Shown piece by piece: positions 12,902-24,257 of a DNA stretch of 64,000 nucleotides (positions within the stretch are counted from its first letter, which is position 1; each line of letters starts with the position of its first letter). Made by a program: the position numbers and the translations under genes. Source of the stretch: Candidatus Poribacteria bacterium (GTDB taxonomy: Bacteria; Poribacteria; WGA-4E; WGA-3G); the NCBI GenBank assembly GCA_965242965.1, contig OZ251518.1:3360001-3424000 (forward strand), in the 5' to 3' direction. The notes under the pieces are model-generated. The model was not told where the DNA came from, searched no databases, and saw only the letters and a program-made list of their open reading frames with translations.

Positions 12902-13072
12902 TTTACGTTATGCGATGCTTGCATAAAATTGAGACTGAACCCGGCAAGTTTTTTGTCGTAGAAATTGTTGTTTGTTTTCGGCCCGTTTAGAAACACACTA
13001 AAAATCACTACGCCTCCTTTTCTGGCAGGTGTCTGTGCCCGCCTTCGCGCACCGGACAGGAGAAGAATCTAC

Positions 13073-16000
13073 GTGAAAACACGCAAAACTTTCGCCAAAA
13101 CAGACGTTCGCACCCCTTTACCGAATTTGATTGAGACGCAGCAGCGTGCCTACGATGCCTTTTTGCAGCGTGAGACGTTCCCGCGCCAAGACAGCGGCCT
13201 GGAGGCAGTCTTCCGAGAAGTCTTTCCTATCACTGACTTCAACGAAGTCTCGCGCCTCGAATTCGTCCACTACCAGCTTGGCGAACCGAAATGGACGCTT
13301 GACGAATGCCTCGCCCGCGGTGTCACTTACCAGGTATCCCTCACCGCGCGTCTCCGCCTCGTCGTTTGTGAGAAAAACGCGGCGGACGAAGAACCGCACG
13401 TCGTCGATATCCGCGAGTCCGATGTCTTTCTCGGCGAAGTCCCGCTGATGACAGAAAACGCCAGCTTCATCATCAACGGCAGCGAACGCGTCATCGTGAA
13501 CCAGCTGCACCGCTCACCCGGTGTCATCTTCCTTGAGAAGAAACTTCCGAGCGGACACCGCTCACCCACGGCGCAAATCATCCCTTACCGCGGGGCATGG
13601 ATAGAATTTGAATCGGACTCTAAAGATACGCTTTACGTCCGGTTAAACAAACGTCGAAAGATACCTGCCACCGTCTTCATCCGCGCACTCGGATGGCAGA
13701 CGGATGCAGACATATTGAAACTGTTCGCTGAACCGACGCGCATGATGCTCTCGGGGTGGCGCGTCACAAAAGTGATACTCCCCGAATGCCCACGCCAAAT
13801 CGGTGAACTTTTAACCGCGAAGGAACATCGAGAGTTGGATGACGACTACCCGGGCATGGAAGCTGAAAAACTCTACGAAGTCGTCTCCGTTCCTGACGAT
13901 GCCGAATGCCCTGTTGCTGTCGGCCAGAGGCTCACGGAAACTGAATGGAAGTCCCGCAAAACGCGAAAAGACATCACCTTTGAACGCGTCTGGCGTATCA
14001 CCAAGCATTACCGGCACGACATCCCTTACGCCATCGGCGACATCGTTTCCGATGCAGATTATCGGAAGGCACGGAAGGATTACCCCGGTATTGAGGTAGA
14101 ACCGCACTATCGCGTCACGGCTGTCACAGACAAAGGGTGCCCGCTGGAAGAAGGACAGATGCTGACACTCAGGCAGCGCGCCAGCGAACGTCGGAAGTGG
14201 AAAGGGTTCACCACCGAACGACTCCTACGCATCACGAATATTCTCAATACCGGATGCCCCTTGAATGTCGGCCAGCACCTCTCGTCTACTGAATACACCG
14301 AAATGCTCGGCAGGTATTCTGACGCTTTCAAGGCAGTCGAGATTGAACCGACAGACATCAACGAAACCATTGGTAGTGTCTGCGCTGAACCTATCGCCGA
14401 CCCGAGGACTGACGAACAGTTGGTGACAGCGAATACGCTCCTCACCGAAGCAGAAGTCACACGGCTGCGGGATGCCGGCGTGGAGACGCTCACGGTGTTG
14501 ACACCCGAATCCGCCAAAGCTCTCCGCTTTTTACGGAATACCCTCGAACGCGACAAAGAGGCGGACTACGAGGAGGACATCCGTGCTCGCGGACGGCAGA
14601 GCGAAACGCCAATTCAGGATGTCGCCCTGCTCAAAATCCACTCTGTCCTCAGACCGGGGGAACCTGCTAGTATTGAGGCAGCGCGCCGGCAACTTGAATG
14701 GCACTTCTTCGACGCACCCCGTTATGACTTGGGGACTGTTGGACGCTACAAAGTGAACCAAAAACTGGGACACCTCTCCATATACGGTGAACAGCCCGAT
14801 GAGAAACAGCGCACGTTGCGTCCAGAGGACATCGCGGCGACACTCCGGCATCTGATTGATGTCCAAAATGATCCTGCGTTAACAGACGACTTGGATCATC
14901 TCAGTAATCGTCGTGTGCGCGGCATCGGCGAATTATTGGAGAACCAGTTCCGCATCGGCTTATTCCAGATGCGGCGTGCCACGCGTGAACGCATCTCCTC
15001 CGCCGATATGAGCAACTGTATGCCGCCAATGCTGATTAATCCGAAGCCGCTCATGGTATCGCTGCGCGAGTTCTTCGGTTCAAACCAACTCTCGCAGTTT
15101 ATGCAGCAGGTAAACCCGCTGGACGAATTGACGCACAAGCGGCGCATTTCCGCCATCGGCCCCGGTGGTTTATCGCGCGATAGAGCCACCGCTGCCGTTC
15201 GCGATGTGCATCACACGCACTACGGACGTGTCTGTCCGTTGGAAACACCTGAAGGCCCCTCTATCGGCCTCCTCGTCTCACTTGCGTGTTATGCGCGTAT
15301 CAATCCTTACGGTTTCATTGAGACACCGTACCGCAGAGTGGTGCCCGGCAAGTCTATGGTTGAAACGCAAATTGAATACCTCACCGCCGATAAGGAAGAC
15401 AGAGCCCACATCGCCGCCAAAACCATCCCTCGCGAGATGACACCGGGCGCGAAGCTGGACACGGGTATCCAGCTGCCTGTCCGAAAAGGCGAAGAGGTGC
15501 TGTCCTTGCCCCTGTCCGAGGTAGACTACGTCGGCATCTCGCCATCGCAGATTGTCGGCGTATCCGCGGCTCTCGTGCCCTTTTTAGAGCATGAAGACGC
15601 GAACCGCGCGCTCATGGGCGCGAACCACCAGCGACAAGCCGTGCCGCTTATCACGCCGGAAGCACCGCTCGTCGGCACCGGCATGGAGGCACGCGTCGCA
15701 CAGGACTCAGGGGCATTGTGCATCGCGAAGCGGAGCGGCACCGTCGAAAGCGTCTCCGCCGAAGATATCATCATCCATACCGATGAAACACTTCACGCAG
15801 ATGTCAGTGAACAACACAAGAGTGAGATGGGGTACGACCGGTACGAACTCCACACCTTCAAACGGAGCAACAACGGCACGTGCATCCATCAGCGGCCCAT
15901 CGTCTCTGTCGGCGATAAAGTGGCAGCCGGTGATGTCGTCGCCGATGGGACTTCTACCGATGAAGGCGAACTCGCACTCGGCAGGAACGTTCTCTGCGCC

Positions 16001-17599
16001 TATATGCCGTGGGGCGGACACAACTATGAGGACTCTATCCTCATCAGCGACAGGCTCGTCCAAGATGCCACCTTCAGCTCGATTCATATTGAGGAATTTG
16101 AGGTAGAGGCGCGGGAAACGAAAATGGGACCGGAGGAAATTACGCGCGATATTCCGGATGTTGGTCAACAGCGACTCGCGCAACTCGACGAAGAAGGAAT
16201 CATCCGCGTCGGAAGCCTTGTCAGCGCAGGGAGCATCCTCGTCGGCAAAATTTCACCCAAAGGCGAGAGTGAATACGGACCGGAGGAGAAACTCCTGCAC
16301 ACTATCTTCGGTGAAAAGGTGCGCGAAGTCCGAGACGCATCCGCCTATGTCAAACCGGGCATTGAAGGTGTCGTGATTGATGTCAAAGTCTTCTCACGAA
16401 AACAAGAACCAAGCCGACACTCGCTGCAAAGCTTCGCTGACGCAGACCAGCTCCGTTACGATGCTAAGAAGAAGGAGATAGAGGAGAAGTTCCACGAACA
16501 TCTCCAGGCTATCCGCCGCCGCCGAGACGAAGAAATTCGGAACGCTCTCATCGACTGCGAATTGGCACAGCCGATTTTTAGAGGGGCCACCCCTGAAGCA
16601 ACCGTCGGGCGCGCAGACGAGTTGGACGAGATCGGGGCAGTCCTGGCAGAGAGCGGCGACACCGTGACACACGAACTCCTGCACACACCCGGCGTTGCGC
16701 TCAACGAGATTTACGTCGTTGAATCAAACGTCATGGCATACATCCAGCGCGTTCAAGAAATCGCCGATGAGCGCATCGCCGCCTATACCGAAGAAAAATC
16801 AAGTTCGCTCGAACGGATGGAACTCGGTGACGAACTGAAACCCGGCGTGCTTAAACTGGTGAAAGTCTTTGTCGCAACGACGCGCCATATCTCCATCGGC
16901 GATAAGATGGCGGGCCGCTATGGCAACAAAGGCGTGGTAGCAGAGATTCTGCCCAAAGAGGATATGCCGTATCTCCCCGATGGAACGCCTGTGGACATCG
17001 TGCTGAACCCCCTCGGCGTGCCATCCCGCATGAACGTCGGGCAAATTCTTGAGATTCACCTCGGCTGGGCGTGCCATGCATTGGGCATCCATGTTGAGTC
17101 GCCTGTCTTTGATGGCGCGACAGAGGACGAAATCTTCGAGATGCTCGCCAAGACAGATTTGCCGGAACGCAGCAAGGAGACAGGAAAAAGCATCCTTTAC
17201 GATGGCAGAACCGGGGAAGCGTTCGGACAGGAAGTCACCGTGGGCCATGTCTACTTCCTCAAACTGAACCATCTCGTCGCCGACAAAATGCACGCCCGTT
17301 CTACCGGCCCCTACTCGCTTGTGACGCAGCAGCCGTTGGGCGGCAAGGCGCAACACGGCGGACAGCGGCTCGGCGAGATGGAGGTGTGGGCATTAGAGGC
17401 ATACGGTGCCGCGCACACCTTACAAGAGATGCTCACGCTCAAATCCGATGATTTCATGGGCAGAGCCAAAATTTATGAGTCGGTAGTGAAGGGGCTCAAC
17501 CCCGAATCCCCCGGCACACCCGAGTCTTTCAACGTTCTCGTGCGCGAACTGCAGGGCCTCGGGCTCAGCGTTTCCCTGAATCCGCCTGAAGAAGAATAG
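13073..17599 (+). CDS. rpoB: DNA-directed RNA polymerase subunit beta, with 5-repeat insertion
   Basis: FIINGSERVIVNQLHRSPG, RDVHHTHYGRVCPLETPEGP, NRALMGAN, GDKMAGRYGNKG, HARSTGPYSLVTQQPLGGKAQ, GEMEVWALEAYGA; GTG start after AGGAG. Confidence 0.98.
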   Translation: MKTRKTFAKTDVRTPLPNLIETQQRAYDAFLQRETFPRQDSGLEAVFREVFPITDFNEVSRLEFVHYQLGEPKWTLDECLARGVTYQVSLTARLRLVVCEKNAADEEPHVVDIRESDVFLGEVPLMTENASFIINGSERVIVNQLHRSPGVIFLEKKLPSGHRSPTAQIIPYRGAWIEFESDSKDTLYVRLNKRRKIPATVFIRALGWQTDADILKLFAEPTRMMLSGWRVTKVILPECPRQIGELLTAKEHRELDDDYPGMEAEKLYEVVSVPDDAECPVAVGQRLTETEWKSRKTRKDITFERVWRITKHYRHDIPYAIGDIVSDADYRKARKDYPGIEVEPHYRVTAVTDKGCPLEEGQMLTLRQRASERRKWKGFTTERLLRITNILNTGCPLNVGQHLSSTEYTEMLGRYSDAFKAVEIEPTDINETIGSVCAEPIADPRTDEQLVTANTLLTEAEVTRLRDAGVETLTVLTPESAKALRFLRNTLERDKEADYEEDIRARGRQSETPIQDVALLKIHSVLRPGEPASIEAARRQLEWHFFDAPRYDLGTVGRYKVNQKLGHLSIYGEQPDEKQRTLRPEDIAATLRHLIDVQNDPALTDDLDHLSNRRVRGIGELLENQFRIGLFQMRRATRERISSADMSNCMPPMLINPKPLMVSLREFFGSNQLSQFMQQVNPLDELTHKRRISAIGPGGLSRDRATAAVRDVHHTHYGRVCPLETPEGPSIGLLVSLACYARINPYGFIETPYRRVVPGKSMVETQIEYLTADKEDRAHIAAKTIPREMTPGAKLDTGIQLPVRKGEEVLSLPLSEVDYVGISPSQIVGVSAALVPFLEHEDANRALMGANHQRQAVPLITPEAPLVGTGMEARVAQDSGALCIAKRSGTVESVSAEDIIIHTDETLHADVSEQHKSEMGYDRYELHTFKRSNNGTCIHQRPIVSVGDKVAAGDVVADGTSTDEGELALGRNVLCAYMPWGGHNYEDSILISDRLVQDATFSSIHIEEFEVEARETKMGPEEITRDIPDVGQQRLAQLDEEGIIRVGSLVSAGSILVGKISPKGESEYGPEEKLLHTIFGEKVREVRDASAYVKPGIEGVVIDVKVFSRKQEPSRHSLQSFADADQLRYDAKKKEIEEKFHEHLQAIRRRRDEEIRNALIDCELAQPIFRGATPEATVGRADELDEIGAVLAESGDTVTHELLHTPGVALNEIYVVESNVMAYIQRVQEIADERIAAYTEEKSSSLERMELGDELKPGVLKLVKVFVATTRHISIGDKMAGRYGNKGVVAEILPKEDMPYLPDGTPVDIVLNPLGVPSRMNVGQILEIHLGWACHALGIHVESPVFDGATEDEIFEMLAKTDLPERSKETGKSILYDGRTGEAFGQEVTVGHVYFLKLNHLVADKMHARSTGPYSLVTQQPLGGKAQHGGQRLGEMEVWALEAYGAAHTLQEMLTLKSDDFMGRAKIYESVVKGLNPESPGTPESFNVLVRELQGLGLSVSLNPPEEE

Positions 17600-17696
17600 C
17601 ATCCTTAGCCACGGCACATAGGGTGAGGGCGAGGGCCTGTCCCTCGCCGTGCCGCGGGTTAAGCACACATCCGAATCCATAGGAGAAAAATCCACA

Positions 17697-20600
17697 ATGG
17701 CAACCCCATTTGACAGTATCTCCCTCAAAATCGCTTCGCCGGAGGAAATCAAAGAGTTGGCGAAGCGCACCTGCTGCAAACGCAGAAGCAGCACCGTCGG
17801 CCACGGCGAACCCTTCATCTGCCCAGAAATGCACACCTGCAACTGCGGCGAGGTAAAGAAGGCCGAGACGATTAACTACCGCTCCTTCCGTCCCGAACTC
17901 GAGGGCCTCTTCTGTGAGGCAATTTTCGGGCCGTCCAAAGACTGGGAGTGTAACTGCGGCAAATATAAACGGATTAAGCACAAAGGTGTTATCTGCGACC
18001 GGTGCGGCGTGGAAGTCACGCGCCAGCACGTCCGCAGGGAACGGATGGGCTACATCCAACTCGCATCCCCTGTCTCGCATATCTGGTTCTTCAAGGGTGT
18101 CCCATCGCGCATCGGCGCGTTCTGCGAACTCTCCGCACGGCAGATTGAGAACATCCTCTATTTTGATGCGTTCATGGTGACTGAAGCCGACGAGGAACTT
18201 CAAGAACAAGGCATCATGAAGCCGAACCAACTCATCAGCGAGGCAGAATTCGACCGCTACAAACGCGAATACCGCGGCCGATTTAAGGCAGGTGCCGGTG
18301 GCCAGATACTTGCCAAACGCCTCGCGAGCCTGGACTTGGAAGCAGAGTGCGCGAAAATTGTCAAGGAACTCGAGGAAACGCGCAGCCATCAGAAAAAGGT
18401 GAAACTCACCAAGCAACTCCGACTGATGGAAGACTTTATCAGTTCCGGACAGCGGCCCGAATGGATGATTCTGGATGTGCTGCCTGTCATCCCGCCGGAT
18501 TTGCGTCCCCTCGTCACCTTAGATGGCGGCCGGTTCGCCACCAGCGATTTGAACGATTTGTACCGGCGGCTCATCCATCGGAATAATCGCCTCGCTAAAC
18601 TCATCAAGATGCGCTCTCCCGAAGTCATCTTGCGCAACGAGAAACGGATGCTGCAAGAAGCCGTTGACGCATTCTTTGATAACGGCCGGCACGGCAGACG
18701 CGTGACAGGGCCCGGCAATCGCGAACTCAAATCCCTCTCGCACGTTCTCAAAGGGAAAGTCGGACGGTTCCGTCAGAACCTGCTCGGCAAACGCGTTGAC
18801 TACTCCGGCCGCAGCGTCATCGTCGTCGGCCCGGAACTGGGGATACACCAGTGCGGCATTCCAAAACAGATGGCGGTGGAGTTGTTCAAGCCGTTTATCA
18901 TTGAACGGCTGCAAGCGCATGGCTACAGCGGCACTATCAAACGCGCTAAGGCTTATGTCGAACATATTGACTCTAACAGCCCCGTGTGGGAAGTCTTGGA
19001 AGAAGTCATCGAAGAACATCCGGTGTTGCTCAACCGGCCACCGACACTGCACCGGCTCGGTATTCAGGCGTTCATGCCTGTGTTGGTAGAAGGAAAATCT
19101 ATCAGAATTCCGCCACTTGTCTGTAAAGCGTTTAACGCCGATTTTGATGGAGACCAGATGGCGGTGCATGTGCCGTTAACCGCTGAGGCACAGGCAGAAG
19201 CGAAACTGCTGATGCTCAGCAGCCATAACATCTTGAAGCCATCGCACGGTGGCCCGATTGCCGTTCCCGAACTGGATATGGTGCTTGGGCCGAGTTACCT
19301 GACGAAGACGCTGCCAGAGCACGATGCAGACGCGCAGCTGCTCCACAAGGTTTATACCACCCAAAACGGCGATGCAACGTTACTCGATGAGATTCGCAGG
19401 AAGCCGTGGTATCACCGCCGCTATGCGCATATGGAGGAAGTCATCGCCGCACACGGTGCCGGGCAGCTCAAACTGCACGACAGCGTCCAACTGTTTTTTC
19501 CGGAAAACGGCGCGCCGCGCGAACCGATTCTCACCACCGTCGGCCGAGTGATTTTTAACGAAGTGCTGCCAGCCGAATTGAAGTGGGTGGACGCGCACTC
19601 TGGACAGCGACTTCCGTTTTTCAATGGGGAAGCAGGTGGGAGGCAGCTCTCGGCAATCGTTGAAACCTGTTTCAACACTCCCGAACTCGGCACGCGGGGG
19701 ACTGTAGCACTGCTGGAGAAACTTCAAAAACTCGCGTTTGAATATGCAACGTTGAGCGGCATTTCGCCCGGCATTATTGATTATATCACACCTTCGCAGC
19801 GGGAAGGACTGTTGGCGAAGACAGAGGCAGCTATTGCCAAACTCCGCGCCGCCGCCGCCGCAGATGCCGATACGGAAGAACTCGAGAACCAGCAAATCCA
19901 CTTGTGGTACCAAGCACTGCGAGAGATGGAAAACATCATGTTTTCCAGACTCCCGGAATTGGAAACCCAACTCGTTGAACGGGGTGAAGATGTCAAAGGG
20001 TTCAGTCCGGTGCATATCATGGCGGATAGTGGGGCGCGGGCGCGGAAAAATCCGTTCATGCAAATCAGTGCCGTTATCGGGCTGAAGGCGAAGCAGAGCG
20101 GCGAAATTCTGCTACCACCGATTACCACCTCCTATCGCGACGGGTTAGACGTGATTGACTACTTCAACTCCACCTACGGTTCCCGAAAAGGCTTGGTGGA
20201 TACGGCAATGAAGACAGCGGCATCGGGTTACCTGACGCGGAAACTCGTTGATGTCGCGCAAGACGTGCGCGTCACCGAAGCGGATTGCGGCACGGTCAAC
20301 GGCATCAAAAAATTTGCCACGGAAGGCGGCGAACTCGCTTTTAAAATCAACGGACGCACCGCGACAGAGGATATCCTACATCCCAATACCGGTGAAGTGC
20401 TTGTCAAAGCGGATGAACTCATTTCAGCCGAAGCAGCGGCACTGATTGAAAAGAGTGAGATAAAAAGCGTCAACGTCCGTTCCGTGCTCACCTGCGCAAC
20501 CGAAGACGGTGTCTGCGCCAAATGCTACGGACACGATTTGACGACGAACATGCTTGTCAGTGTCGGTGAAGCTGTAGGTATCATTGCCGCGCAATCCATT

Positions 20601-23600
20601 GGCGAACCCGGCACGCAGCTCACGATGCGGACATTCCACACTGGGGGTGCAGTGGAGGAAGTCTCCGATGCACGCCAGCGTCAAATCCGAGCAAAAGCGA
20701 GTGGCACTGTGAGGTTCCGGGATTTCCATCCCGGCATCACTGTCCACCAAGAGGGCACTCTCTGGATATCCACAGGGCCGGGTAATGCCCCGCTAGGAAA
20801 TCCCCCGAGTGCCAGCGCGGATGCGGAAGATGAAACGCAACGAAAGACCGGGAACCGAGCGAATTTGGACGCGCCTACCTACAAAGTCACGCGCGTCATT
20901 CACGCCGATTGCAAATTACGGAAAGACGAATTGCTCAACGAAAAGCAGTATTCCGAAAACGCGCAGCGTTACAAAGGCTTTGAGACAGTTCCATGGCAGC
21001 ACCGCGTCACCGCTGTTCACGATGATGCCTGTCCCGTGAAAGAGGGCGACAGACTTTCCGCCGCGCAGTGGCGGGAAGCCATAAGTGCATACGGCTTCCC
21101 GCGCTTTGCAACCGAGAAGCGCGAGATAACACACGTCCGCCTATCTACTGTGAACGTTCAACCCGACGATGTGCTCACCGAAGAAGAAATTGAGCAGCGC
21201 GAAGCGGAAATTCGGAACCGATTTGACGGCGAATGGTGCTACCGTATCCCCAAAACCGGCGAGATTTTCAAGTCGGCTCAAGACTTTTTGCCCGGCTTGG
21301 GCATCCCTGTGGAGCCCCTTGAAGATATTGAGGATACAGAAATGCTAGGCGACACGTCAGCTGAAACGGCGGAAGACCTGGCTTCTGCGGAAACATCACT
21401 AGCGAAAGACACCTCTTTTGAACGCGTCTACCGCATCACCGAGCGGACAGATCGGGATTTCCCGTATGCTGTCGGGGATATCGTGGCAGCGGAGGAGATT
21501 GAGCCGTGGCTCACGCCTTTTGAGGCGGCACCGAACCCTGTCTATGTTATTGATGCAAACGCGCCCTGGCATGCAGGCGAAACGTTGACACGCTACCAAT
21601 ACGAGGAAGTGTGTCGCGACTATCGGCCGTTTGAATCCGAAAAAGCGGCGGAGGTGCTGCACCACGTTACGGCAGTGCATCATCCCAAATGCCCGCTCAA
21701 ACCGGGTCAAGATTTGACAGAAGCAGATAAAAACGCTATGCTCGCTCGCTGGTCTGGGTTTGACGTTGAGAGGCTGCGGCACCGTGTAACGCACATCTAT
21801 CATCCGGGTTTTCCACACACACCGGGCTATTTGATGAGCGATGCGGAGGCGAAACGGCTGGGGAGTAAACATCCTGGCTTTGAGACAGAAACATCTCCTG
21901 TCTTTGCAGCGCAATTGGTGATATGGGAGGACGAAGAAGCGGAATCGTCTGATAAAGCGAAACCTATCAAGCCCTATTGCGTGACAGGGATTCATCACCG
22001 CGACTGCCCCCTGGAGGCCGGGGACCTTTTCACTCCCAAGGAGGTAACTGCACAACGCAGGAAATTCCCAGGGTTTGATGTTGAACGCTTCTACGTGATC
22101 CCCAGGGAAAACATCTACGAGGTAACCGAAACTAAGCGAGCCTTTACCGCAAAAGCGTTAGCGGGTTCCAAGAAGAGTTGGCGCATTACTGAAGTGCTTC
22201 ATCCGGCGTGTCAACTTGAAGTTGGCAAGATAGTTTCCGATGCCACGTATAAAAAGACTCGCAAGACCTATCCTAGCACTAATCAAGGGCAGCTCATAAC
22301 GCAGACAGCATTTGAAACATGGGGGGGATCCTTAGCAGCCACGCAAGTGTCTCCGGAGCCTGAGCAGTTTCTCCATCGGGTAACCGAAGCTAAGCCAGCC
22401 TTCACCGCAGAAGCGTCGCCGGAAGCAGAAACGTCGCGAGAATCAGACAGGACCTGGCGCGTCACCGAAGTGTTCAATACAGCATGTCCTTATGAGGTCG
22501 GACAAGAAATCTCCGATGTCGAGTATCGACGAGGCCAAGAGGAATATGGTGATACTCGCGGAGACTTCCTGACGCAGATGGAGTTGGAACACCGGAACGC
22601 CCTCACGACTCAACCTGTTCTGCAACTCTCTGAAACGGAGTTCAAGGTCCTTCGCAAAACGGATCCGACGCTCAAGGATAGGGTGATTACCTCCCGATAC
22701 CGCGTTGTGGACACCTATCACCCAGAGTTCCCCTTTAAAGTCGGCGAGGTCCTGACAGATAAAGATTACAAGCAGTGCCAGAAAGACTTCAGAGGGTTCG
22801 ATGTTGAACATTTCTACGAGGTTACCGCAGACGAACGTGAATTCGTGGAGAGCAGCCCTCAGGAAGCGGAAACCCAACTCATTTCAGACCTCACCGTAGA
22901 GGGGCCGCACTATCGGCACGACGTTGAACCCTCTCCGGTAGCGACATTTGAGAAGCCGCGTCTCAAGAAATTTTGGCGGGTTAATGCAGTCTCCAACCCA
23001 GAGTGTCCGCTGGAGGTTGGTCAAAATCTCTCCGAGGGCGAATATCTGGCGGCACGCGAGACATACAAGGTAATTACCGAAAAACAGAACCCTGATTCAC
23101 GTTTCCTTGAAGGTGATATCCTTGTCCTCTCCGAGCGGGAATACAACGCGCTCATGAAAGGCCATAGGCAAGAAGCTCCGCACACCGTTACCGCCGTGCA
23201 TCACCCAAATTGTCCACTTCAGGTTGGAGCCAAATTGAGCAAAGCGGAATACGAGGGTTTGAGTGCTCACTACCCCGGGTTTGATACCGACGAACCCGCA
23301 CTGCGGATGCATATTGAGATAGAGACTGCGGATGGACATCGGGTGCCGCATCTTATCACGGAAGGTTACTCCTTCTCCATCAAGGAGGGCGATCCCGTCA
23401 AAGTGGAAGACACTCTCGCCGAGCTCCATGAAAAGACAGCGAACATGGATATCGTCGCCGGGATTCCGCGTGTGACAGATCTCTTTGAGGCGCGCCGTCC
23501 TAAACGTGAGGACGCGGCGGAAATCGCCGAGATTGAGGGACGCATTGAGGCAGCAGGCACCAAAGCCGGTGTGCCGACATACCGTATCGTTGATGAGGAA

Positions 23601-24257
23601 CACCAGAGCCGCCTCTACGCCATTCCTGACGAAAAACGGCGCGTCACCGAAGGCGACCGGGTAAAGGCAGGACAACCGCTCACGGACGGTTACCTCAACC
23701 CGCACGATATCCTCAGCATCGGGCGCGTCTTCATTGAAGATGTGCCAATTGATGGTGATGAAGCACTCTGGACATACCTCGTTGAGGAAATCCAAAAGGT
23801 TTACGGTGCACGCGCCATCAACGACAAGCACCTCGAAGCCATCGTCCGCCAGATGACGAGGAAGGTGCGGGTGATAGCACCCGGCGATACGCAGTTTCCC
23901 CATAACAGTGAGGTGCCGCGACAGAAATTCAATGAAGTCAACGCGAAGGTTATTGCTGAAGACGGTAAACCCGCTACCGGCGAACCGATTCTGCAAGGCA
24001 TTAGCCGCGCATCGCTCAGTACCGACAGCTTCATCTCTGCCGCCTCGTTCCAGCAGACGACGAAGGTGCTGACAGATGCCGCTGTCAAAGGGCAGAAAGA
24101 CAAACTCTTCGGATTGAAGGAGAACGTCATCCTCGGTCGCCTCATCCCTGCAGGAAGTGGACTTTCGGATTTCCAGCATTTGGAAATCACGGAAGTTGAC
24201 GCTGACGAAGAGATGGAAGCACCGGAATCCGCCGAGTCATCGTCTGCGGTGCCATAA
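17697..24257 (+). CDS. rpoC: DNA-directed RNA polymerase subunit beta' (~2186 aa; very large trigger-loop insertion)
   Basis: Zn-finger C-C-C-C, GRFRQNLLGKRVDYSGRSV, NADFDGD, GEPGTQLTMRTFHTGG, SAASFQQT, GLKENVILGRLIPAG. Confidence 0.98.
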   Translation: MATPFDSISLKIASPEEIKELAKRTCCKRRSSTVGHGEPFICPEMHTCNCGEVKKAETINYRSFRPELEGLFCEAIFGPSKDWECNCGKYKRIKHKGVICDRCGVEVTRQHVRRERMGYIQLASPVSHIWFFKGVPSRIGAFCELSARQIENILYFDAFMVTEADEELQEQGIMKPNQLISEAEFDRYKREYRGRFKAGAGGQILAKRLASLDLEAECAKIVKELEETRSHQKKVKLTKQLRLMEDFISSGQRPEWMILDVLPVIPPDLRPLVTLDGGRFATSDLNDLYRRLIHRNNRLAKLIKMRSPEVILRNEKRMLQEAVDAFFDNGRHGRRVTGPGNRELKSLSHVLKGKVGRFRQNLLGKRVDYSGRSVIVVGPELGIHQCGIPKQMAVELFKPFIIERLQAHGYSGTIKRAKAYVEHIDSNSPVWEVLEEVIEEHPVLLNRPPTLHRLGIQAFMPVLVEGKSIRIPPLVCKAFNADFDGDQMAVHVPLTAEAQAEAKLLMLSSHNILKPSHGGPIAVPELDMVLGPSYLTKTLPEHDADAQLLHKVYTTQNGDATLLDEIRRKPWYHRRYAHMEEVIAAHGAGQLKLHDSVQLFFPENGAPREPILTTVGRVIFNEVLPAELKWVDAHSGQRLPFFNGEAGGRQLSAIVETCFNTPELGTRGTVALLEKLQKLAFEYATLSGISPGIIDYITPSQREGLLAKTEAAIAKLRAAAAADADTEELENQQIHLWYQALREMENIMFSRLPELETQLVERGEDVKGFSPVHIMADSGARARKNPFMQISAVIGLKAKQSGEILLPPITTSYRDGLDVIDYFNSTYGSRKGLVDTAMKTAASGYLTRKLVDVAQDVRVTEADCGTVNGIKKFATEGGELAFKINGRTATEDILHPNTGEVLVKADELISAEAAALIEKSEIKSVNVRSVLTCATEDGVCAKCYGHDLTTNMLVSVGEAVGIIAAQSIGEPGTQLTMRTFHTGGAVEEVSDARQRQIRAKASGTVRFRDFHPGITVHQEGTLWISTGPGNAPLGNPPSASADAEDETQRKTGNRANLDAPTYKVTRVIHADCKLRKDELLNEKQYSENAQRYKGFETVPWQHRVTAVHDDACPVKEGDRLSAAQWREAISAYGFPRFATEKREITHVRLSTVNVQPDDVLTEEEIEQREAEIRNRFDGEWCYRIPKTGEIFKSAQDFLPGLGIPVEPLEDIEDTEMLGDTSAETAEDLASAETSLAKDTSFERVYRITERTDRDFPYAVGDIVAAEEIEPWLTPFEAAPNPVYVIDANAPWHAGETLTRYQYEEVCRDYRPFESEKAAEVLHHVTAVHHPKCPLKPGQDLTEADKNAMLARWSGFDVERLRHRVTHIYHPGFPHTPGYLMSDAEAKRLGSKHPGFETETSPVFAAQLVIWEDEEAESSDKAKPIKPYCVTGIHHRDCPLEAGDLFTPKEVTAQRRKFPGFDVERFYVIPRENIYEVTETKRAFTAKALAGSKKSWRITEVLHPACQLEVGKIVSDATYKKTRKTYPSTNQGQLITQTAFETWGGSLAATQVSPEPEQFLHRVTEAKPAFTAEASPEAETSRESDRTWRVTEVFNTACPYEVGQEISDVEYRRGQEEYGDTRGDFLTQMELEHRNALTTQPVLQLSETEFKVLRKTDPTLKDRVITSRYRVVDTYHPEFPFKVGEVLTDKDYKQCQKDFRGFDVEHFYEVTADEREFVESSPQEAETQLISDLTVEGPHYRHDVEPSPVATFEKPRLKKFWRVNAVSNPECPLEVGQNLSEGEYLAARETYKVITEKQNPDSRFLEGDILVLSEREYNALMKGHRQEAPHTVTAVHHPNCPLQVGAKLSKAEYEGLSAHYPGFDTDEPALRMHIEIETADGHRVPHLITEGYSFSIKEGDPVKVEDTLAELHEKTANMDIVAGIPRVTDLFEARRPKREDAAEIAEIEGRIEAAGTKAGVPTYRIVDEEHQSRLYAIPDEKRRVTEGDRVKAGQPLTDGYLNPHDILSIGRVFIEDVPIDGDEALWTYLVEEIQKVYGARAINDKHLEAIVRQMTRKVRVIAPGDTQFPHNSEVPRQKFNEVNAKVIAEDGKPATGEPILQGISRASLSTDSFISAASFQQTTKVLTDAAVKGQKDKLFGLKENVILGRLIPAGSGLSDFQHLEITEVDADEEMEAPESAESSSAVP

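Follow-up and report, generated by a model that had tools for sequence, protein, structure and literature searches.

Tandem arrays of a bD2-like module in the RNA polymerase genes rpoB and rpoC of one family of Candidatus Poribacteria

The window analysed here is a stretch of 64,000 bp (contig OZ251518.1, positions 3,360,001 to 3,424,000 of the forward strand) from the 5.7-Mb genome of a Candidatus Poribacteria bacterium, an uncultivated sponge symbiont. It contains rpoB and, as the open reading frame (ORF) directly after it, rpoC, and both of these adjacent genes carry arrays of the same module of 39 residues. Bacterial RNA polymerase is known to be enlarged at fixed positions on its surface, where a small number of module types (BBM2/BEAN, SBHM/HABAS) are inserted, and bD2 is a small bacterial-specific domain situated at about residue 140–180 of every bacterial beta'. 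We consider it likely that the module is a paralogue of beta'-bD2 which was duplicated and tandemly amplified in surface loops of rpoB and rpoC within one poribacterial family, where the arrays would act as lineage-specific insertions. The two genes are located as follows; throughout, RpoB residues are numbered according to the longest ORF.

12965–17599, plus strand: rpoB (RNA polymerase beta), longest ORF with 1544 codons; TIGR02013 with 1606 bits, six Rpb2 Pfam domains
17649–24257, plus strand: rpoC (RNA polymerase beta'), 2202 residues; TIGR02386 with 1429 bits

In a preliminary description of this DNA five tandem repeats inside RpoB had been reported. The translation of 13757–14335 (plus strand) gave exactly the five peptides quoted there. 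The five modules are arranged head-to-tail and start at residues 265, 304, 343, 382, and 421 of the ORF. Since the period is exactly 39 residues, the fifth unit ends at 14341 and the array comprises residues 265–459 (13757–14341). The consensus of the module is xRVTxVxxxxCPLxVGxxLSxxEYxxxxxxYxGxxxE. The E-values given below were obtained with a profile of 16 copies in a search of the whole genome.

13757–13873, plus strand: beta module 1 (residues 265–303), E 2.9e-16
13874–13990, plus strand: beta module 2 (residues 304–342), the most divergent copy, E 4.8e-11
13991–14107, plus strand: beta module 3 (residues 343–381), without Cys; profile match
14108–14224, plus strand: beta module 4 (residues 382–420), the copy whose positional orthologue is best conserved across genera
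14225–14341, plus strand: beta module 5 (residues 421–459); profile match

The array of the beta' subunit is larger and less regular. A hidden Markov model (HMM) built from the copies of both subunits located 11 clear modules, which start at residues 1078, 1118, 1261, 1338, 1378, 1443, 1511, 1603, 1684, 1776, and 1845 of RpoC.

20880–23297, plus strand: beta' module array (residues 1078–1883) with 11 clear modules of 117 nt each
20880, 21000, 21429, 21660, 21780, 21975, 22179, 22455, 22698, 22974, and 23181, plus strand: starts of the clear beta' modules

Beyond these clear copies the combined HMM gave one match at E 0.036 and some half copies. About four copies are degenerate, and the stretches between the modules consist of degenerate or half modules and acidic linkers.

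The claim that one and the same module occurs in both subunits was borne out by HMMs that had been built from the copies of one subunit only. The HMM from nine RpoC copies found all five RpoB copies with independent E-values of 2.2e-7 to 6.9e-13, so that the two arrays show significant profile similarity; it also gave two sub-threshold places in RpoB (E 0.13 and 0.31). In the reverse direction the HMM from the five RpoB copies matched RpoC at 12 places with E ≤ 1.9e-4 and at two further places weakly. Throughout the 5.7-Mb genome the 16-copy profile found nothing better than E 0.19 outside rpoB and rpoC, and all seven tblastn matches of the RpoB array in the same genome fall within the rpoB and rpoC ORFs. 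The repeat is far above chance.

A separate observation concerns a direct repeat of 38 nt inside the rpoC array (22121–22158 and 22379–22416, plus strand, 89% identity). The encoded products are a pair of similar linker elements (…VTETKRAFTAKA… / …VTEAKPAFTAEA…), and both open like the first strand of a module. Across rpoB and rpoC this is the most recent-looking duplication.

With hhalign the 16 modules of the window were compared with six native bD2 segments, taken from five genomes of the poribacterial order and from E. coli. The comparison gave a probability of 98.4% (E 8.9e-15) over 33 columns. Against E. coli bD2 alone the match was weak (26.9%, P 6.8e-4), with the register as expected, and among the PDB sequences the sole RNA polymerase matches of the module profile were at beta' residues 143–171 (E 0.76–0.94). 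In the sister families f2 and f3, 19 genomes contain exactly one module match, and in all five of those examined it lies at the bD2 position of a beta' ORF of normal length (1411–1445 residues). The native bD2 of these families reads, for example, AFIVLEVSDPNCPLKVKQLLTEEEYNEHLSQFPDGFRVGMG and shows the whole module signature, with both the Cys-Pro-Leu turn and a helix that starts with LTEEEY; the segment aligns to solved beta' at about 138–185, the E. coli equivalent being S143–G181. According to Alvarez-Carreno et al. (2024, PMC11515920) beta'-bD2 comprises residues 139–177 or 142–181, is bacterial-specific and about 39 residues long, and is assigned together with bD7 to CATH 3.30.60.280, named sLC for 'small left claw'. 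The period of 39 residues agrees with sLC, and so does the hairpin–helix–strand layout of the module (E-E-H-E, from DSSP of our models). Because of the hhalign result, and because the single matches of the sister families are bD2 itself, we identify the module, at the level of sequence, as an amplified paralogue of the enzyme's own beta'-bD2.

In the window the native domain has diverged.

18159–18302, plus strand: position of the native beta' bD2 (sLC; residues 171–218), diverged; module HMM E 0.18–0.23

It has no Cys-Pro-Leu turn, which the sister families and most relatives keep, and the native bD2 position scores as module in 16 of 17 related RpoC proteins. As the native bD2 has lost the signature and the array copies have kept it, the presumed source appears to have drifted, whereas its paralogues did not.

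We also considered whether the module could be an independent new fold convergent on bD2 or a compact variant of BBM/BEAN. Neither Pfam nor NCBIfam has a model for the module, none of the 16 copies matched Pfam better than E 0.045, the structural searches described below returned no bD2 structure, and beta-i4 is normally built of BBM2 (PMC2939025), all of which would fit such an explanation. The hhalign probability against native bD2, the complete module signature in the bD2 of the sister families, and the equal length of 39 residues (PMC11515920) argue against a new fold, however. The BBM2/BEAN unit (CATH 3.90.105.10) was rejected as well, since the BEAN-type matches fall on the flanks of the array and not on the modules, which have no TG(D/E) motif. 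Both versions of this explanation are therefore very improbable. Several other candidates were discarded. The SBHM/HABAS type does not fit a unit of 39 residues that is homologous to sLC, and SBHM-type resemblance is limited to the ends of the beta' insertion. PF24070 (T4_MRH) reached 23.3 bits against a cut-off of 24.4 and matched only 1 of the 16 modules (E 0.15), which we attribute to chance; matches of the module to ML-domain, ribosomal S17, and SH3 were sub-threshold.

The beta array sits at the beta-i4/SI1 site of the lobe, as had been proposed in the preliminary description. Conserved sequence of the lobe can be aligned with beta of the E. coli type until about residue 231–245, just before the array, and beta-i4/SI1 corresponds to residues 225–343 of E. 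coli beta, where one to six BBM2 repeats are found (PMC2939025). The segment following the array had been called BBM1-like, but it turned out to be BBM2/BEAN. An AlphaFold model of residues 150–560 (mean predicted local distance difference test, pLDDT, 66.6; predicted template modelling score, pTM, 0.42) is poor in the lobe fragment and reaches a pLDDT of 70–93 in the array. Each module is modelled as a strand, a short hairpin strand, a helix of 10 residues, and a strand, and the last strand of one module continues as the first strand of the next, forming strands of 10–12 residues. With VIA-align the model matched E. coli lobe-beta-i4 (7egs_A, Z 7.5), MoeA (1uz5_A, Z 6.8, root-mean-square deviation 1.6), Orn/Lys/Arg decarboxylases, and beta' bD5; MoeA, these decarboxylases, beta' bD5, and beta-i4 are all named as BEAN members in PMC11515920. 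Foldseek returned whole beta-subunit chains only. The BEAN-type matches cover residues 106–115 and about 309–363 of the model (about 55 aligned residues) and skip the array. Consequently, one BEAN/BBM2 domain is present in which the five sLC units are nested, and the beta subunit shows three levels of nesting, a BEAN domain within the lobe and five sLC units within the BEAN domain. In the consensus of relatives a TGE motif is present in the BEAN flank.

13727–13756, plus strand: first strand of the single BEAN/BBM2 domain of beta-i4 (residues 255–264), directly 5' of the array; model strand 109–112
14342–14500, plus strand: rest of the BEAN/BBM2 domain of beta-i4 (residues 460–512), with a weak sequence match to beta-i4 of solved chains and the VIA-align matches

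In the beta' subunit the sequences on either side of the insertion align to E. coli-type beta' 899–963/975 and 1109–1164, which are the boundaries of SI3 in the trigger loop, and the C-terminal flank also aligns to 7ye1_D beta' 1084–1156. The position of the RpoC array in the trigger-loop insertion SI3, which the preliminary description implied, was thus supported. The trigger-loop motifs are situated at residues 994 and 1938, with about 935 residues between them.

20682–20771, plus strand: N-terminal strands of the SBHM-like SI3 base (residues 1012–1041), just after trigger-loop helix 1; model strands 13–42
23307–23426, plus strand: C-terminal strands of the SBHM-like SI3 base (residues 1887–1926), followed by trigger-loop helix 2; model strands 888–927

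A model of 961 residues (mean pLDDT 66.0, pTM 0.30) contains four strands at each end of the insertion which resemble an SBHM base. For these ends Foldseek gave weak matches to SI3 and cytochrome f, all at E > 0.1, and for the whole model it gave no match at E ≤ 0.001. The modules were predicted with a pLDDT of about 70–87 and the E-E-H-E layout, the acidic linkers with a pLDDT below 50. The array is thus nested in the SBHM remnant of SI3 midway through the trigger loop of a beta' subunit of 2202 residues.

To delimit the distribution of the module, 151 genomes of the phylum were sampled and matches were counted at E ≤ 1e-4. The window's own family f1 showed matches in 97 of 99 genomes, with 5–17 per genome. 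Exactly one match each was found in 9 of 10 genomes of family f2 and in 10 of 26 genomes of family f3, and the 15 genomes of families f4–f9 gave none. Among the sampled genomes only a single poribacterial family shows the amplification. When 1.84 billion representative proteins were searched with the module profile, 36 reached E ≤ 1e-3. By Pfam, nine of these are RpoB or RpoC or fragments thereof and three are TPR proteins, and 15 are short sequences that matched no family significantly and mostly resemble array fragments. The remaining nine partial matches, in unrelated repeat and other proteins, were rejected as spurious; in repeat proteins of the LVIVD, Ig-like, cadherin, and Big_9 types no more than about 15–18 positions of the profile are covered.

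All 18 RpoB homologues carry three to five modules at the lobe site, and 14 of them carry modules elsewhere too, namely ahead of the rif region, between this region and the DANRA motif, and in the region of SI2. They are up to 2352 residues long. The RpoC homologues have 9–14 modules in the trigger loop and lengths of up to 2605 residues, and relatives also carry a module next to the native bD2. The preliminary description had suggested an expansion at neighbouring sites of the two subunits. The module has indeed expanded in both subunits, but its sites are not just two, as the relatives add three sites in beta and the one beside bD2.

Three observations were made on these relatives. First, some poribacterial RpoC proteins contain PF18741 (MTES_1575, restriction-endonuclease-like) inside the trigger-loop array, at residues 1328–1421 of P0040 (E 1.8e-12) and 161–259 of P0045 (E 1.7e-17), both above the cut-off; precomputed Pfam assignments add P0008 and P0031. 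A nuclease-fold domain within SI3 is odd, and by Pfam it is absent from the RpoC of the window. Second, three relatives outside RNA polymerase, P0047 (837 residues), P0050 (938 residues), and P0059 (452 residues), consist of three to five sLC-type modules followed by TPR repeats (locus L015 in genome G094). Residues 256–540 of P0050 are 30–34% identical to the SI2-region insertion of RpoB from genomes of genus g3, so that these sLC-TPR proteins and RpoB insertions have a block of roughly 280 residues in common. Judging from their sequences the sLC-TPR proteins could be RNA polymerase-associated factors; the module-profile search found none in the genome of the window. Third, P0061, an RpoC of 2029 residues from a metagenome contig, has a very long N-terminal region, with Rpb1 domain 1 ending near residue 1034, and two sLC-like segments at about residues 308 and 822. 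It probably stems from an unrelated lineage whose insertions lie within bD2 and around it.

Tandem Repeats Finder detected no tandem array with a period of 117 nt at the DNA level, and only short DNA matches with 63–83% nucleotide identity join the copies, for example 13967–14006 with 21405–21444 in rpoC (83%). The copies are therefore old. In a tree of 112 modules (38 columns) positional orthologues form supported clades across genera, such as the clade of beta copy 4 with six rows and an SH-aLRT of 99, and they are up to 82% identical. Nearest-neighbour identities and the tree agree that beta copies 3, 4, and 5 of the window match copies 1, 2, and 3 of three-copy arrays. The repeat phylogeny suggested in the preliminary description thus delivered the clustering of positional orthologues, but neither the order of colonisation nor the split between beta and beta', 58 of 107 inner branches being unsupported. 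The label of the subunit changes 12 times on the tree compared with about 30–36 times in shuffles, which mainly reflects near-copies.

The ratio of nonsynonymous to synonymous substitutions (dN/dS) was determined between the window and the congeneric genome G108. It is 0.18 for the beta array, 0.195 for the 11 beta' modules, 0.38 for the beta' insertion outside the modules (linkers), and 0.05–0.13 for core regions. From these rough values of about 0.18–0.20 the modules appear to evolve under purifying selection. G108 does not have the beta' module at residue 1603 (22455–22571, plus strand) and the adjacent linker, its ORF having 2116 codons compared with 2202 residues in the window. As this module is missing in a congener, gain and loss of modules continues within the genus.

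Such an indel raises the question whether the modules could be tolerated filler without a role, a neutral or selfish expansion which slippage or unequal recombination propagates through permissive loops. All the sites are known permissive insertion sites (PMC2939025; PMC11515920), the copy number varies between three and five at the lobe and between 9 and 14 in the trigger loop, and degenerate and half copies as well as low-complexity linkers are present. However, the modules show a lower dN/dS than the linkers, their positional orthologues have been kept across genera, they are confidently folded in the models, and the arrays have been kept in nearly all genomes of the family. Moreover, it is established for SI3 that no trigger-loop insertion can be without mechanical effect (PMC6970531). 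We therefore regard a purely neutral expansion as unlikely.

A second question is whether the arrays of the two subunits form a joint structure in which the beta-lobe and the trigger-loop arrays bind each other across the channel rim and couple the movement of the trigger loop to the position of the lobe. That SI1 and SI3 are neighbours, as had been pointed out in the preliminary description, agrees with the small protein TraR touching both (PMC6970531) and with the position of cyanobacterial Si3 beside the lobe (PMC10895346). One module occurs at two neighbouring surface sites, a single factor of 73 residues contacts lobe-Si1 and Si3 in E. coli (PMC6970531), and the enlarged cyanobacterial Si3 follows lobe and protrusion (PMC10895346). 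The net charges differ, the beta array being near-neutral (−1) and the beta' insertion acidic (−45), which would also fit a joint structure. On the other hand, a module in common need not mean that the arrays pair, since relatives hold it at three further sites in beta and next to bD2. The number of copies varies from genus to genus, even within the genus one beta' module has been gained or lost with no visible change of the beta array, and the beta' linkers are predicted to be disordered. A contact between the arrays is geometrically plausible but was seen in none of the results. A complex prediction for the beta' array (803 residues) and the beta array (193 residues) scored 0.00 in two runs without controls and weighs neither way. 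Altogether a joint structure is a hypothesis that seems unlikely.

A more specific version would regard the sLC modules as self-recognising 'Velcro', with the lobe rod and the trigger-loop array of beta' zipping together at the rim of the downstream-DNA and secondary channel, maybe also with free sLC-TPR proteins, as a latch. This we consider quite unlikely. If true, the latch would couple trigger-loop folding, lobe position, and factor access, and would be a regulatory device made from a piece of the enzyme's own clamp that is found only in sponge-symbiont Poribacteria.

The explanation we prefer is the amplification of bD2. The native bD2 would have been duplicated in one family of Candidatus Poribacteria, and its copies would have entered permissive surface loops of the neighbouring genes rpoB and rpoC, to be multiplied there in tandem afterwards. 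The adjacency of the two genes may have provided a simple route for the spread of the module by local duplication or recombination. According to the model, the beta array would form a fairly rigid rod that extends the wall of the lobe at the rim of the downstream-DNA and secondary channel. The beta' array may be a large and partly flexible appendage, which would be obliged to move with each folding cycle of the trigger loop. By analogy, this appendage could tune catalysis, pausing, and the stability of the open complex, and could offer or block docking sites for factors. These roles are expected because the corresponding insertions of other lineages behave in this way. SI3 moves with trigger-loop folding and affects open-complex stability and the action of factors, and lobe-Si1 is one wall of the downstream channel and a docking site (PMC6970531); the secondary channel is shielded by the enlarged cyanobacterial Si3, which adjoins lobe and protrusion (PMC10895346). 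We infer that the arrays work as other lineage-specific insertions do, with the enlarged cyanobacterial Si3 as the model.

Several points weigh against this explanation. The module profile now fails to recognise the native bD2 of the genome (E 0.18), which is why the donor has to be deduced from relatives. No solved bD2 (beta' 140–180) is among the Foldseek or VIA-align matches of either model, the models being too large and composite for a fold of 39 residues, so that larger domains dominate the lists; the fold is accordingly identified from sequence profiles and from secondary structure as predicted. The pTM of both models indicates low global confidence, which makes the rod shape and the packing of the domains uncertain. 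The repeat tree gives no first-colonised site, its deep branching being unsupported, and with a dS of 0.9–1.4 the synonymous sites are near saturation, which is why the dN/dS figures are rough.

With regard to the rpoB gene itself, translation probably begins with the GTG at 13073 (codon 37 of the ORF), giving a product of about 1508 residues, because the homologues have 1509–1519 residues. They begin at the position of codon 37 with a conserved ...R.SFAKT... N-terminus. The first 36 codons of the longest ORF, which has a TTG start (12965–13072, plus strand), are probably untranslated. The closest named records are metagenome-assembled genomes of Candidatus Poribacteria with 75% and 44% identity.

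Insertions of repeated small modules are already known, and the tandem sLC arrays in both large subunits are a lineage-specific variant of them. With sLC as described in PMC11515920 the module shares the length, the order of hairpin, helix, and strand, the hhalign match, and the signature in the bD2 of the sister families. That paper also describes rare variants of beta' in which bD2, bD4, bD5, and bD7 hold additional sLC domains. The arrays found here differ in that they are tandem arrays of 3–14 copies which occur in beta and in the trigger-loop insertion, sites outside the paper's list; its main text does not mention Poribacteria. The beta-i4/SI1 of BBM2 repeats (Lane & Darst; Iyer et al. 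2004, via Opalka et al. 2010, PMC2939025) is comparable in its lobe site and in the principle that a small module is repeated there in tandem, one to six times, and one BEAN is retained here. The difference is that the repeated unit is sLC, and that the array is nested in BEAN instead of replacing it. SI3 is built of SBHM repeats (PMC2939025); SI3 (beta'i6) has two SBHM in E. coli and eight in cyanobacteria and plastids, where it comprises about 630 residues (PMC6970531, PMC10895346). The poribacterial insertion resembles it in the SBHM-like base aligning to the boundaries of E. coli SI3, in the recursive nesting, and in its very large size of about 935 residues. In contrast to SI3, its bulk consists of sLC modules and acidic linkers predicted to be disordered, not of interdigitated SBHMs, and some poribacterial relatives add the nuclease-like domain PF18741 within the array. 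In the literature search we found no account of tandem sLC arrays, of sLC in beta, or of sLC in the trigger-loop insertion, although the supplements of PMC11515920 may list related variants; in PMC3444138 only an RpoB indel of three residues is mentioned.

The arrays add a third building block to those by which RNA polymerase is enlarged, namely the enzyme's own bD2/sLC element of 39 residues in the form of a tandem array. The same block is used in both large subunits, with as many as six sites occupied in a single bacterial family, which is an unusual route to enlarging a core enzyme. The trigger-loop appendage of roughly 900 residues is bigger than cyanobacterial Si3 and differently built. 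Because the sister families have the native copy only, the case is dated and phylogenetically bounded, which makes it useful for studying domain accretion in essential machines. For annotation, the arrays explain the poribacterial rpoB and rpoC products of 1.5–2.6 thousand residues, which are not misassemblies. For the uncultivated sponge symbiont itself, they may mean an unusual control of elongation and pausing.

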